The notes under the pieces are model-generated. The model worked only from the letters and a program-made list of their open reading frames with translations, was not told where the DNA came from and ran no database searches. Shown piece after piece: positions 22,233 to 29,355 of a stretch of DNA of 64,000 nt (position 1 is its first letter; every line of letters starts with the position of its first letter). The DNA is from Promethearchaeota archaeon. GTDB taxonomy: Archaea; Asgardarchaeota; Lokiarchaeia; Sigyniarchaeales; SOKP01. Both the position numbers and the translations under genes were made by a program. The stretch spans positions 32,001 through 96,000 of the forward strand of contig JAEOTR010000041.1 of NCBI GenBank assembly GCA_016839705.1, written 5' to 3'.

Positions 22233-23237
22233 TTGATGACTAGCACTGTAATTGAAAAAGTTAACAACTTGTTAAAAAAGGCTAATTTTGAAACCTTTGT
22301 TTTAGGAAATTTTGCCACAAAGACGAGTAAATTTTGTTTTGATTTATTAGGAAAAAAGGATGATGTAGTGTTTAGTGTTAAAGTTTTTTCTAACATAGAT
22401 AACATAAATCCCGAAGTAATTCAAGATATCAAATCACTTTCTCTGATATTAAAGTCTAAACCATTATTGATAGGATTGAAGAACCGATATCAAAAATTAG
22501 AAGATAATACAATATACGTAAGAGATGGATTACCTTTCATAACCGTTAACACGTTCGAGAATATTCTAAATAACAATATCTTTCCATATGTTTTAGCTCG
22601 GAGAGGTGGCGGCGTAATATTTCTGAATGGATTTTTGATGAAAAAAATAAGAGAAGAACATTCAATAACAAGAAAAGAGTTATCAGAACAATTAGGAGTA
22701 GCTAAGAGAACTATTAGTGCCTATGAAAATGAAAGTATGCGTCCATCGGAGGAAATGGCAGAAAAAATTCTAAGCATCTTAGAAAATAATGAAATTTTCA
22801 AAAAAATAAACATTTTCAAATGGAAAATTAAATACGACATGGATGCCCAAGAAATTTCTGAAGAAAAAGAGTTAAGTGAATTTGAATCGCATATAAAAAC
22901 AATTATTGATGATATAGGATTATCGTCTTATTGGTATAAAAAAGCTACAGTTCCGTTCAAATTATCATTATTTTCCTCACTTAATCAAACAAAGAATGAT
23001 GGTTTTTATCCTCTCTTTTCTAACATCTCTGAAGATCAGAATAATGTTAATGAGATGAATTTTAACAGTTTGAAAATGTTCAATGATTTATTTCATAAAA
23101 CAGCGTTATATATTATCGATAATAATGTAAGAATACCCGGAGCTACTAAAAGAAAAGATATCCATGTTGTAAAAATAAAAAATCTGGAAGAAGTTAATGA
23201 TGAAGAAGAATTCATCGATCTCATTCAAGATTCATAA
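22233..23237 (+). CDS. Conserved archaeal HTH transcriptional regulator
   Basis: CFDL..VKVFSNID, ARRGGG, central HTH TRKELSEQLGVAKRTISAYE. Confidence 0.8.
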   Translation: MMTSTVIEKVNNLLKKANFETFVLGNFATKTSKFCFDLLGKKDDVVFSVKVFSNIDNINPEVIQDIKSLSLILKSKPLLIGLKNRYQKLEDNTIYVRDGLPFITVNTFENILNNNIFPYVLARRGGGVIFLNGFLMKKIREEHSITRKELSEQLGVAKRTISAYENESMRPSEEMAEKILSILENNEIFKKINIFKWKIKYDMDAQEISEEKELSEFESHIKTIIDDIGLSSYWYKKATVPFKLSLFSSLNQTKNDGFYPLFSNISEDQNNVNEMNFNSLKMFNDLFHKTALYIIDNNVRIPGATKRKDIHVVKIKNLEEVNDEEEFIDLIQDS

Positions 23238-23250
23238 GGAGAAATAAAAT

Positions 23251-23940
23251 TTGATCTGCGGTATTGACGAGGCTGGTAGAATATAATCTATCTCGGATTA
23301 TATACCAAAAGGCCCCGTAATTGGTCCTCTTGTGTTATGTGGAGTTTGCTATAAAGAATCCAATTTATCCTATTTAGAGCGGATTGGCGTAAAAGACTCT
23401 AAAAAATTAACTGCCAAAAGGAGGAGAATTTTAGCTAAATTAATAAAGGAATCGTGCCATTCATTTAAAATAATTGTCGTTCCTCCCCGAGAAATTGATG
23501 AAAGGGAAGAAAAAAGAATTACTCTGAATAAACTCGAGGAATTAAAAATGGCTGAAATTATTAGAGAATTAAAACCTGATACTATCTATATTGACGCAGT
23601 TGATGTAAATGAAGAAAGATTTACCCAATCAATCCTAGACCTCTTAAATTATAGCCCAAAAGAAATTATTTCAAAACATAAAGCTGATGACCTATTCCCT
23701 ATTGTATCTGCGGCTTCAATTATAGCAAAAGATAAAAGAGATGCATTAATTGAGGAATTAAAGGAAAAATATGGAGATTTCGGCTCTGGATATCCCTCAG
23801 ATTTAAGAACCACAGATTTTCTTCGGGAATATATAAAGAAAAAACAAAAAATACCCCCCTACGCGAGAAAAACATGGGATACAATAAAGAAAATAGTGGA
23901 TGAAGAATTAGGAAACAAAAAAATAACCGATTTTTTCTAA
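23251..23940 (+). CDS. rnhB: Ribonuclease HII, join(23251..23279,23310..23940), interrupted by a 30-nt intron
   Basis: AAGGAG RBS, TTG 23251; spliced product MICGIDEAGRGPVIGPLV..VKDSKKL..KADDLFPIVSAASIIAK..GSGYPSD; C-terminal PIP box NKKITDFF; 219 aa. Confidence 0.93.
23280..23309 (+). other. Putative bulge-helix-bulge (tRNA-type) intron in rnhB mRNA
   Basis: UGGU/ACCA 4-bp helix, 3-nt bulges AGA and AAA, inner stem AUAUAAUC/GAUUAUAU; in-frame TAA at 23284-23286. Confidence 0.85.
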
Positions 23941-23942
23941 GT

Positions 23943-24635
23943 TTATCGTTTTTTCACTAATAAAACAATATGATTTGCTGCGTATTTATGAATGTTAATG
24001 CTTTCAATAATTTTATATCCCCTGTTTTCAAGAATTTTCTTTTCTTGGGCATAGATATATTCAGATTTTTGGACACTATCAATAGATTGAGATTTGACTG
24101 CTAAAACTAATAATCCTTTCTCGTTTAGATAATAATTACTATTATCTATAGCTATTTCTGCTTGGTTAGGTTGAGAAACATCCTGATAAATTAAATCTAT
24201 TTTTGAAAATATTGATTTTGCATATTCATCTGGATATCGAGCATCAGCAAAAATGGGAATAACATTTTTCCTTCGAGAGGTATTTTGTATTAACTGCCGA
24301 ATGCTTCTTTCTGCAAATTCAACACCATAAATTATACCGTTCGTCAGTATATCAGAAAGATGAGAAATAGTAGTGCCAGAAGAAGCTCCTAAATATAAAC
24401 AGCTTAAATCGTCGGATAGAAAATTATTAATTGGATTTTCCAATATTAGAGCTGCCAGTTTACTCCGAAATGGGTCCCATTCCCTATATTCATTTTCTTT
24501 ATATTCGAGCAACCGTTCTCCATAAACTCTATTTCCTTTATCTCTGTTTCTTGTATAAAGTCTCAATTTTTCTTTGGATCCAGATGTGAAAACATTGCAA
24601 AATTTAGGATGATTTTTTATTTCAATTTGTGACAT
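23943..24635 (-). CDS. flpA: Fibrillarin-like rRNA/tRNA 2'-O-methyltransferase
   Basis: VYGE, YREWDPFRSKLAA, LYLGASSGTTISHLSD, DARYP, YQDVSQPNQ. Confidence 0.96.
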   Translation of the reverse strand: MSQIEIKNHPKFCNVFTSGSKEKLRLYTRNRDKGNRVYGERLLEYKENEYREWDPFRSKLAALILENPINNFLSDDLSCLYLGASSGTTISHLSDILTNGIIYGVEFAERSIRQLIQNTSRRKNVIPIFADARYPDEYAKSIFSKIDLIYQDVSQPNQAEIAIDNSNYYLNEKGLLVLAVKSQSIDSVQKSEYIYAQEKKILENRGYKIIESINIHKYAANHIVLLVKKR

Positions 24636-24646
24636 GCTTTATCACC

Positions 24647-25849
24647 TTATCTTCTCTTTTTTGGCTTCTTTTTCTTTCCTTTAACAGGCTCTTCCTTTTT
24701 AGGTGGATTTGGATATTTAATTTCGATTTCGTTTATTTTAGATTCAATTTCTTTTGCTAGCTTATCTCCTATGAATTCACCGTTAAAATAATCGAGTTTA
24801 GCAGCAACTCCAATTTTCCCTGCGACTATTCGAGCAATTTTTCCACGATGATATGATTTTGCTGACCTTATTTGATTCCATTGGAATATTAAACCATGTT
24901 TTGGGCGTTTCTCTCCCGTTTTGAGAAAACGATAAAGAGCTTTTTCAGCCCCTAACAATTGTATTCTTGATGCTGGCATAAAAGCCAGTTTTTTCATACT
25001 ACCTGCTTTGGCGATAAGTTTAGCTCCGATTAATGCTCCGATAATAGCATTTATGTTGGGGGCAATCTTTTCCATTATATCTGCTAGATTAATTTCTAAA
25101 TCTTGTCTATACGAGTCTATAGAGATTATTTGATTTGCATAATCTTTAACCATTCCTAAATCAAAATCCGCTCCCATTGAATCTGAAGCAAATTTCTGCA
25201 AAATTCGAATTTTTTTCTCTCCAAGTTCAAAATGTTTTATTAGATTTTCGTAAGTATATCTCTCCCTTGCTCCTAAAGTAGAAACCATTTTTGCTAAAAG
25301 AATGTTATCTTCAATAATCTTATCGGTTAATTCTGGAAAATATAAACCATACCATTCTCTGAGTTGACTTGAAAATAAACTTATAGATTTTTTAAGTATA
25401 TCTAGAGTACCAATGATCTGAATAATTAAATTATCAGAATGACCACTTTCTTCTCTTACTTTTTTCTTGGTTAATTCCTCGTTGATTATTTTATATTGTG
25501 CGAGAATTTCATCTTTCCTTTTAATTATTCCTATGTTTTTTAATTGAGTTTCTAAATTGAGACGAAAATTTTTAAGTTCAAGTGAATCACTTTCTAAAAG
25601 TATACCATATCCTAATTGTTTTGTTAGTGTATGTAATTGTTTATTATCAAATACAAACTCTTCAAATCCAGAATTCTTCAATTCAGATAAAAACTCTTTG
25701 TATTTACTCTGAATGATACCTTTATCAATATCAATATAGAATTGAATAATTTTCTGGGTATCATTTTCAAAATCAATAAAATTCAAAATGGTTCCAGTTT
25801 CATCAAAAGCGAAAATCCCAACTAAAGTATCTGCTATATATGACTTCAT
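24647..25849 (-). CDS. nop5: C/D box sRNP protein Nop5 (Nop56/58)
   Basis: LREWYGLYFPEL, IAPN, PASRIQLLGAEKAL, PKHGLIFQ, basic tail. Confidence 0.95.
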   Translation of the reverse strand: MKSYIADTLVGIFAFDETGTILNFIDFENDTQKIIQFYIDIDKGIIQSKYKEFLSELKNSGFEEFVFDNKQLHTLTKQLGYGILLESDSLELKNFRLNLETQLKNIGIIKRKDEILAQYKIINEELTKKKVREESGHSDNLIIQIIGTLDILKKSISLFSSQLREWYGLYFPELTDKIIEDNILLAKMVSTLGARERYTYENLIKHFELGEKKIRILQKFASDSMGADFDLGMVKDYANQIISIDSYRQDLEINLADIMEKIAPNINAIIGALIGAKLIAKAGSMKKLAFMPASRIQLLGAEKALYRFLKTGEKRPKHGLIFQWNQIRSAKSYHRGKIARIVAGKIGVAAKLDYFNGEFIGDKLAKEIESKINEIEIKYPNPPKKEEPVKGKKKKPKKRR

Positions 25850-27723: not shown

Positions 27724-29355
27724 ATGGCTTCTGAAAAAACTGAATTTCCTGAAAAAATTGAAAAAATCTCTAGGGAAATAATCAAATTCCTAATTCAGAA
27801 TCCACAGACTTCTCGGAAAAGAATTACTAATATAAAAGGTAAAATAGGAAAAAAATTCAACTTTAAAAAAGTTATTAAGAATGCTACAATCTTAGATTAT
27901 GCTACTCCAGATGAGAAAGAAATTATTCTTCCAATCCTGAAAAGGAGATCTACTAGAACCTTATCAGGTGTCTCTGTTATAGCTATAATGACGAAACCAC
28001 TTCCATGTCCAGGAACATGCATTTACTGTCCCGGACAGAATTCACAACCCGGTGAAAAGGTAGCCCAATCTTACACTGGTCGAGAACCCGCAGCCATGAG
28101 ATCTATCCATAATAATTATGACCCTTATCAACAAGTACAGAGCAGAATCAGAGATTTGGAGGTCATCGGTCATACTGTAGACAAAATTGAGCTTATTTGT
28201 ATGGGAGGTACCTTTTTATCTACAGATCTCAATTATCAACAAGAATTCATTAAGGGTGCTCTTGAAGGGATTATTGAACAGAGAGTTAAGAGCTTAGAGG
28301 AAGCTAAAAAGCTTGCTGAAACTTCTAAAAGAAGAGTTATAGGAATTACTGTTGAAACTAGACCAGATTATTGTAAAGAGGAACATGTAGACAGAATGCT
28401 TAAATATGGAACAACTCGAGTTGAACTTGGCATACAAACAGTCTATGATGATGTTTATGATTTGGTTAAAAGAGGTCATACCTCTATTGATAGCATTGAA
28501 GCAATTAGAATTGCTAAAGATGCGGGTTTAAAAATAAATGCTCATATAATGCCCAATCTGCCTGGTTCTGATTATTCTAAAGATTTAGAATTATTTGATA
28601 CATTATTTTCTAACTCCAATTATCGGCCAGATATGCTAAAGATTTATCCAACTTTAGTAATACATGGGACAGAATTGTATAATTGGTGGAAAGAAGGCAA
28701 ATATTCTCCTTACTTAGATGAAGAATTAATAGATTTAATCGCAAAGGTTAAAACTAATCTTCCACCTTATGTTAGGATTCAAAGAATTATGAGAGATATT
28801 CCCGCAACTTTAATTGAAGCTGGTTGCAAAAACAGCAATTTAAGGCAAATAGTGCAAGAAAGATTAAGAGAAATAGAAGATACATGTAAATGTATAAGAT
28901 GTAGGGAGTATGGGATCAGGAAGAAAAAGGAAATTATCGATGAGCGCTCTCTCGACGAAATTAAATTATATCGACTAGATTATGAAGCATCCGAAGGACA
29001 AGAAATTTTCTTGTCTTACGAGAATCAGAAAGAAGGATATTTGGTAGGTTATTTACGCTTACGACAACCCTCTGAATCTGCTCATAGACCTGAATTAAAT
29101 GATGGAAGGACCTTGATCGTAAGGGAAATTAAAGTTGTTGGCGAATTAGTACCAAGGGATATGAAGCCAAATCGATTTTCTCAAATCCAGCATCGAGGAT
29201 TTGGAAAGATGTTAATGCAAAATGCTGAGAAAATCTCATTCGAAGAATTCAATGCAAAAAAATTAGCCGTGATTAGCGGTATAGGTGCTAGAGATTGGTT
29301 CTATGAAATGGGATATAATTTAGATGGGGTATATGTTTCTAAATCTTTTGAATAA
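27724..29355 (+). CDS. elp3: Elongator complex protein 3 (tRNA U34 carboxymethyltransferase; radical SAM plus KAT)
   Basis: RTLSGV, CPGTCIYCPG, QSYTGREP, ETRPD, LKIYPTLV, RIQRIMRDIP, QHRGFG, VISGIG. Confidence 0.95.
   Translation: MASEKTEFPEKIEKISREIIKFLIQNPQTSRKRITNIKGKIGKKFNFKKVIKNATILDYATPDEKEIILPILKRRSTRTLSGVSVIAIMTKPLPCPGTCIYCPGQNSQPGEKVAQSYTGREPAAMRSIHNNYDPYQQVQSRIRDLEVIGHTVDKIELICMGGTFLSTDLNYQQEFIKGALEGIIEQRVKSLEEAKKLAETSKRRVIGITVETRPDYCKEEHVDRMLKYGTTRVELGIQTVYDDVYDLVKRGHTSIDSIEAIRIAKDAGLKINAHIMPNLPGSDYSKDLELFDTLFSNSNYRPDMLKIYPTLVIHGTELYNWWKEGKYSPYLDEELIDLIAKVKTNLPPYVRIQRIMRDIPATLIEAGCKNSNLRQIVQERLREIEDTCKCIRCREYGIRKKKEIIDERSLDEIKLYRLDYEASEGQEIFLSYENQKEGYLVGYLRLRQPSESAHRPELNDGRTLIVREIKVVGELVPRDMKPNRFSQIQHRGFGKMLMQNAEKISFEEFNAKKLAVISGIGARDWFYEMGYNLDGVYVSKSFE

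Follow-up and report, generated by a model that had tools for sequence, protein, structure and literature searches.

The window analysed here, a 64,000-nucleotide stretch of a Promethearchaeota archaeon genome, contains a gene for RNase HII (rnhB) whose N-terminal catalytic motif is interrupted by 30 nt. The parts of the locus, in window coordinates, are as follows.

23236-23241, plus strand: Shine-Dalgarno-like AAGGAG of rnhB, 9 nt 5' of the TTG, overlapping the stop codon of the upstream HTH regulator
23251-23279, plus strand: rnhB exon 1, from the TTG start codon through the second base of the Arg10 codon, encoding catalytic D6 and E7
23280-23309, plus strand: putative bulge-helix-bulge (BHB) intron of 30 nt, with an in-frame TAA inside, predicted to be removed
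23274-23277, plus strand: 5' exon strand of the central helix, UGGU, 4 bp, pair probabilities 0.44-0.90
23278-23280, plus strand: 5' bulge AGA, predicted cut 23279/23280 by the register test below
23281-23303, plus strand: intron hairpin, with a 9-bp stem (23281-89 with 23295-303) and a 5-nt loop
23284-23286, plus strand: in-frame TAA, terminating the 11-aa peptide of unspliced rnhB
23304-23307, plus strand: 3' intron strand of the central helix, ACCA; the 4-mers are diverse in relatives, with pairing preserved
23308-23310, plus strand: 3' bulge AAA, predicted cut 23309/23310
23269-23315, plus strand: weak exon-exon outer helix, 23269-73 with 23311-15, containing one G-G and one A-C mismatch
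23310-23940, plus strand: rnhB exon 2, encoding D105 and D136; public gene calls begin within it or within the intron

An earlier, sequence-only reading of this DNA had placed the AAGGAG element, the TTG at 23251, the TAA at 23284, the UGGU/ACCA helix and the two bulges, and all of these coordinates were confirmed. Without splicing, the frame from TTG 23251 reads MICGIDEAGRI and then meets the TAA, giving 11 aa. Deletion of 23280-23309 yields a protein of 219 aa in which the universal DEAGRGP motif is whole, restoring G-R-G-P just as had been proposed, and this read-through covers positions 1-198 of 199 in Pfam RNase_HII and 1-206 of 207 in TIGR00729. Deletion of 23281-23310 gives the identical product in this genome, where both end bases are A; excision registers one and two bases further 5' place Lys at the junction. 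The 202-aa open reading frame call for rnhB begins at profile position 19 and omits D6 and E7, in agreement with the earlier remark that it lacks the catalytic D and E. The assignment of TTG 23251 as the start codon is supported by ATG at the same codon in two relatives of the same clade (L033 and L041), where a context comparable to AAGGAG precedes the ATG.

In most relatives of the genus an open frame extends 17-24 codons further upstream (window 23200-23250), overlapping the HTH regulator gene, and they have no start at the position of the TTG; this genome and a few clade members have a stop upstream, and their rnhB begins at a TTG, ATG or GTG adjoining the motif. Fibrillarin and nop5 (23943-25849, minus strand) lie tail to tail with rnhB, a convergence kept in relatives both with and without the intron, and elp3 (window 27724-29355) is uninterrupted here (positions 3-521 of 522 in TIGR01211). 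A promoter scan with a sigma-70 model was uninformative for this archaeal host. A search for direct repeats flanking the rnhB insert found none. Rfam gave no match at the insert site, and a group I or group II self-splicing intron was ruled out on that result and on size, a ribozyme core alone needing hundreds of bases against the 30 nt here.

Pattern matching across 400 Asgard genomes (this genome, 134 family relatives and 265 genomes outside the family) found an insert of 28-31 nt at exactly the same rnhB site in this genome and in 80 of the 134 family relatives, across eight genera, and a clean DEAGRG site without insert in 37 family genomes. The relatives carrying the insert are Promethearchaeota (Lokiarchaeia) assemblies. 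Because the insert occupies the same site in 80 relatives, an assembly artefact, the first objection raised in the sequence-only reading, is excluded. The pattern was found in none of the 265 genomes outside the family, with the qualification that it requires G-[PSACT-like]-V downstream and that variants, such as those of genus g12, escape it; nor did the pattern find the insert in 21 distant archaeal loci. Genome G083 has a second rnhB start, insert-free (G083:C7:390-418), on a 2.7-kb contig beside its intron-bearing copy, possibly through bin contamination.

Folding energy was rejected as evidence for a BHB motif, the 81-nt region of the rnhB insert having a folding z of -0.41 against shuffles. 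In the minimum-energy fold the second bulge has 4 nt and the outer helix is a different one (-13.1 kcal/mol, vs -9.5 for the strict BHB); prediction is good for the inner hairpin and the central helix. The modelled motif is relaxed, strict on its inner side and weak or 4-nt on its outer side, which bears out the earlier description of a relaxed BHB with a weak outer helix. Because the region does not surpass shuffled sequences in stability and the motif is relaxed, the case for a BHB rests on comparison and not on folding energy.

Structure and cut register were compared among 78 distinct insert-bearing rnhB copies, whose pairing counts are not independent events. The central helix is paired in 292 of 312 cells, always with at least three of its four pairs, around an intron strand that is highly variable. 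At the 5' bulge-adjacent pair, an exon-side G faces C in 12 of 13 copies and the other 65 copies have no C there; T stands opposite A or G, and C opposite G only. In the 23 copies of the genus, 92% of central-helix cells are paired, with four pairs changed on both sides, vs 23-46% in slid registers of the same copies; in the intron hairpin the figure is 90%, and three pairs have changed on both strands. In the alignment of Asgard rnhB genes that the sequence-only reading had pointed to, different sequences thus keep the pairing. On the tree, G-to-C covariation offers three independent well-supported pairs, two concordant and one uninformative, which is too few for a test, and many of the helix substitutions are transitions that preserve G-U/G-C pairing and could be partly neutral.

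The register is a sharper test than the pairing counts. Archaeal EndA cuts after the second nucleotide of each 3-nt bulge, and joining after base 2 gives Arg in all 78 copies, as no other register does; a junction after base 3 yields Ser in two copies, and one after base 1 yields Lys, Thr or Ile in 77. The third base of the 5' bulge is T in two copies and G in one, and the discriminating AGT bulge occurs a third time, in G149. At the 3' bulge the second base is free (54 A, 12 C, 11 T, 1 G) and the third is A or G only, as expected if the exon starts at base 3. From these comparisons we infer that the rnhB junctions lie after the second bulge base, following the EndA rule. The Glu codon is GAG in 77 of 78 insert-bearing and 20 of 32 insert-free copies, which are not phylogenetically independent. 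About 35 intron-bearing copies (L005-L023 and others), and one of 32 insert-free copies, have Gly-Ser rather than Gly-Pro after the junction; the codon change in these intron-bearing copies gives the outer helix an additional A-U pair, and RNA structure may have driven the replacement of the residue.

On the exon-2 tree the presence of the insert changes at least 12 times, and several insert-free rnhB genes are sisters of insert-bearing ones; a single clade of intron-bearing genes was rejected (AU p 2e-8, with groups defined by the trait). In the favoured reading the intron is old within a single Lokiarchaeia family, where its losses or regains number at least 12. L194 (insert-free, from a genome assembly; 314-1030) and its intron-bearing sister L195 differ at 5% of synonymous codons in exon 2, vs 11 of 12 from about -26 to +10 of the junction (binomial p 3e-14), and the L194 patch is two bases away from that of a more distant insert-free relative. 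More generally, the insert-free alleles of one subclade carry a recoded patch of ~36 nt at the intron site, with Arg as CGN (comparison of L194, L195, L121, L008, L162, L197, L198 and L200). Because a cDNA copied from the gene's own transcript would bring no change to the flanks, the L194/L195 switch is best read as a short (~36-nt) conversion tract from a diverged allele, in either direction; the patch comes from one MAG contig, which could be chimeric. Among closely related pairs, the site shows a synonymous divergence of 0.61-0.66 between alleles with and without the insert, 0.19-0.24 between two with it and 0.43-0.48 between two without, against backgrounds of 0.27-0.35 and with pairs that are not independent; the low divergence between insert-bearing alleles fits either pairing constraint or co-conversion. 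In homing introns and inteins, which occupy conserved catalytic motifs, a short flanking exon tract co-converts with the filled or empty allele. The rnhB case resembles these elements in its flanking tract and its position in a conserved catalytic motif, but the rnhB intron has 30 nt and encodes no endonuclease.

Spliced-junction patterns sought in JGI contigs matched only two long DNA contigs of distant insert-free genes. Protein P0159, the intact protein closest to the intron-bearing genes, was ruled out as a spliced copy, its source being a genome assembly and not a transcript. The other intact proteins looked up were likewise ruled out as spliced copies of known intron-bearing genes, having recoded flanks.

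The host appears equipped for BHB splicing. An EndA gene is present, its best solved relatives being the catalytic subunits 3p1z/3ajv and 2cv8 (Aeropyrum, Sulfolobus), and it retains a Lys and an Arg at the positions that align to K44 and R46 in the Aeropyrum loop, the element that lets the enzyme cut relaxed motifs (PMC3241643). By this alignment the host EndA would be of the broad-specificity type with the crenarchaeal-specific loop. Most relatives have two EndA paralogues, and one subunit gene was found in this 93%-complete assembly. The genes for RtcB and archease are neighbours ~34 kb upstream of rnhB, on the contig that carries it. Several tRNA genes escape recognition until BHB inserts of 26-38 nt are taken out by the same register, so the cell already requires a BHB-splicing activity. 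These include a tRNA-Leu, two tRNA-Glu and a tRNA-Arg (C25 near 8819, C76 near 33607, C49 near 6190, C92 near 68324), and one of the genes holds two 30-nt inserts. ARAGORN calls only 18 tRNAs in the genome, several of them doubtful, and a tRNA-Sec at G000:C18:39386-39471.

The rnhB insert may have company in this genome. A genome-wide scan for BHB motifs joining two coding frames, with a mirrored-geometry control, provides a lower bound and not a census. The strictest filter passed two sites, rnhB among them, and four in the mirrored control, and is not discriminating alone; at loose settings the control matched as often as the real geometry. Strong sites with inserts of 26-34 nt numbered 11, vs one in the control. 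Removal of a BHB insert restored five coding genes besides rnhB to known proteins, judged within this genome, in line with the earlier suggestion that such motifs be sought in apparently broken reading frames.

G000:C85:74326 (L186), plus strand: iscU, with a strict 27-nt candidate BHB insert just 5' of the first cysteine motif; Pfam profile 2-30 then 32-125, exons abutting
G000:C56:55470 (L189), plus strand: CoA-substrate-specific activase, with a frameshifting 32-nt candidate BHB insert; TIGR00241 3-120 then 122-248
G000:C29:8703 (L190), plus strand: mevalonate kinase, with a frameshifting 31-nt candidate BHB insert in the N-terminal motif; exon 2 from profile position 11
G000:C82:11187 (L187), plus strand: EF-2 paralogue, with a 29-30-nt candidate BHB insert near the 5' end; exon 2 from profile position 49
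G000:C82:13897 (L188), minus strand: Rab-like GTPase, with a 29-30-nt candidate BHB insert near the 5' end; exon 2 from profile position 5

For the last three genes the basis of the join is the restored motif and not abutting profile matches. Counting rnhB, the genome has at least six candidates for coding introns. Three further strong BHB candidates (C56:61216, minus strand; C52:9978, plus strand; C23:4256, plus strand) were not validated by family profiles, and a search elsewhere in the genome for a donor of the rnhB intron gave no significant sequence match. The EF-2 paralogue and the Rab-like GTPase are neighbours on C82.

Explanations other than splicing were weighed against the behaviour of the exons and of the insert. 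That rnhB is a pseudogene, or the source of an N-terminally truncated dead protein made from a downstream start, would suit the public calls for insert-bearing genes, which have 198-216 aa, lack DEAG and start inside or after the insert. It is nonetheless highly improbable, given an exon 1 in which D, E, A and G change only synonymously and an in-frame start precedes the motif in all 78 copies. D6, E7, R10, D105 and D136 are invariant, with D and E present in 76 of 76 full-length insert-bearing copies; these copies contain no internal stops, and exon 2 dN/dS is about equal in insert-bearing and insert-free pairs (0.20 vs 0.18; 0.12-0.16 between the gene here and its nearest relatives). The pseudogene-like decay that the sequence-only reading had kept in view is not what these values describe. 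A second RNase HII to take over the function is also lacking: the genome has a single match to this family and, in an assembly 93% complete, none to the RNase HI-type RVT_3. We have equally little faith in translational recoding, by which the ribosome would read through the stop or hop over 30 nt, as in T4 gene 60-like bypass, with no cutting of RNA. A hairpin does follow the last exon-1 codon and 75 of 78 inserts are multiples of three, but three copies and a fourth relative have frame-shifting inserts of 28, 29 or 31 nt. Each of the 75 in-frame inserts holds at least one stop and 15 hold two, with TAA, TAG and TGA all represented, and every one of the 78 inserts contains a stop or a frameshift. 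Variation in the insert is without codon periodicity (0.82/1.03/0.79 bits, vs 0.68/0.34/1.25 in exon 2), and ten added residues would fall in the active-site motif. A hop would take off from an Arg codon and land mostly on a Lys, Thr or Ile codon, so that neither the matched take-off and landing codons of bypass nor the single conserved stop and protein-like insert of read-through was found, and recoding leaves the exon-intron helix unexplained. Taken at the codon level, these comparisons show exons under purifying selection and an insert that is not coding.

The chance is slimmer still that the insert is excised from the DNA of some members of the population, or that another enzyme takes the place of EndA. 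Insert-free alleles do occur among close relatives, yet the closest of them has recoded flanks and not a clean excision, no flanking direct repeat was found around the insert, and both geometry and register are those of EndA. A different proposal accepts splicing and adds that the intron is retained as a regulatory switch coupling RNase HII output to EndA/RtcB, in the manner of HAC1/XBP1. Long retention, tight length (30 nt in 75 of 78 copies) and a stop or frameshift in every copy would fit, as would the six lineages that have the stop at another codon, which is suggestive only, a shuffled insert having a stop 66% of the time. We nevertheless find a switch unlikely in view of the at least 12 presence/absence changes, the 37 relatives that live without the intron at similar dN/dS, the same kind of insert in unrelated genes and the constitutive need for EndA in processing intron-bearing tRNAs. 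In HAC1/XBP1 splicing, IRE1 cuts at stem-loops under stress, and RtcB ligates XBP1 in animals. This system also cuts and ligates mRNA with proteins only, but the cut is made by IRE1 and not by a tRNA endonuclease at a BHB, leaving only the ligation step in common with our proposal for rnhB. The dependence of RNase HII on EndA/RtcB, as the sequence-only reading had it, would follow from the splicing that we infer; a regulated switch does not, and the HAC1/XBP1 likeness drawn there is loose, with no sign of regulation for rnhB.

We consider it very probable that the rnhB insert is a BHB intron of the pre-mRNA, excised by EndA and joined by RtcB to give the 219-aa RNase HII. This is in substance what the sequence-only reading had proposed, and site presence/absence, pairing, register, selection and the machinery genes all lend it support at the level of genomes. 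The transcript would fold locally into the relaxed BHB, whose fold is predicted and conserved; the broad-specificity EndA would cut after base 2 of each bulge, consistent with the register test and known EndA chemistry; and RtcB with archease would ligate the exons, restoring Arg10. Circularisation after release is established for BHB introns, and the released 30-mer is probably circularised as well. Unspliced RNA would give the 11-aa peptide, and a downstream restart a protein without D6/E7. Most likely, the rnhB intron is a tolerated passenger and not a regulatory switch.

The closest known system is the BHB intron that interrupts the cbf5 pre-mRNA of Desulfurococcales and Sulfolobales (PMC2738675, citing Watanabe 2002 and Yoshinari 2006), in the papers searched the one confirmed coding BHB intron, with other genes 'predicted' only (PMC2738675). 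The rnhB insert has the features of such an intron, namely a 4-bp exon-intron helix, two bulges in a relaxed motif, the register, precise absence in relatives and a host with EndA and RtcB genes, and its translated frame is unusable unless the insert is removed. On these DNA-level grounds it would work like a cbf5-type pre-mRNA intron. Both introns are short, lie in coding sequence within a relaxed BHB, interrupt a catalytic motif such that removal is necessary, and have been gained and lost patchily. The cbf5 cut falls between the second and third bulge base (PMC2738675), the position predicted for rnhB, and both hosts have a loop-bearing EndA, hetero-oligomeric in the cbf5 case and possibly so here. 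The rnhB intron differs in phylum and gene, in being one of the at least six candidates in its genome, and in lying in the Arg codon of DEAGRG, where it severs D6/E7, whereas the cbf5 intron splits a catalytic Asp codon. In addition, cbf5 splicing was shown by cDNA and that of rnhB is deduced from genomes; loss of the cbf5 intron through reverse-transcribed mRNA has been suggested (PMC2738675), whereas the closest rnhB pair points to conversion with a diverged allele. A BHB intron also occurs in the 5' UTR of HVO_1309 in Haloferax volcanii (PMC7714728), with spliced reads noted in PMC10485636. Like rnhB in our proposal, this mRNA is a substrate of the archaeal splicing endonuclease, but its intron lies in an untranslated leader with the reading frame unbroken and is cut by an EndA of other architecture, whereas the rnhB intron breaks the frame.

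Non-canonical BHB introns are known from Asgard tRNA genes (PMC11291895; bioRxiv 10.64898/2026.10.13.758758). Both papers concern tRNA genes only, with Jordiarchaeia and Atabeyarchaeia as the intron-rich classes, and the word 'mRNA' is absent from the text of the preprint (10.64898/2026.10.13.758758). These introns and that of rnhB are alike in motif, in size (26-38 nt in the tRNAs here) and in repeated gains. Literature searches covering mainly open-access papers turned up neither an rnhB intron nor any mRNA intron from Asgard archaea. The rnhB case differs from known systems in its lineage, in number per genome and in what appears to be short-tract exchange.

Reviews up to 2023 count two archaeal mRNAs spliced by EndA, cbf5 and the Haloferax leader, and expect more (PMC10485636). 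We offer tentatively, at somewhat less than even odds, the broader proposal that splicing of many housekeeping mRNAs by the tRNA machinery is routine in this Lokiarchaeia family, and that the ~30-nt introns, encoding no nuclease, are mobile as DNA, spreading and disappearing through short conversion tracts at conserved catalytic motifs. If this is true, a coding intron in 80 Asgard species and several per genome would make spliceosome-independent mRNA splicing normal in close prokaryotic kin of eukaryotes. Split protein-coding genes would then be an ordinary feature of an Asgard lineage and offer a handle on the arrival of BHB introns, which a 2026 preprint describes as the central open problem (10.64898/2026.10.13.758758). 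A near-identical pair of alleles with and without the intron would give direct entry to that question.

There are also implications for annotation. Public annotations of the intron-bearing genes are truncated and lack the catalytic residues, which affects inferences of gene content. The 'Loki_b32' protein TKJ16838.1, at 213 aa, has the length of the truncated class, and KKK43184.1 of Lokiarchaeum GC14_75, at 231 aa, is a member of an intact cluster.
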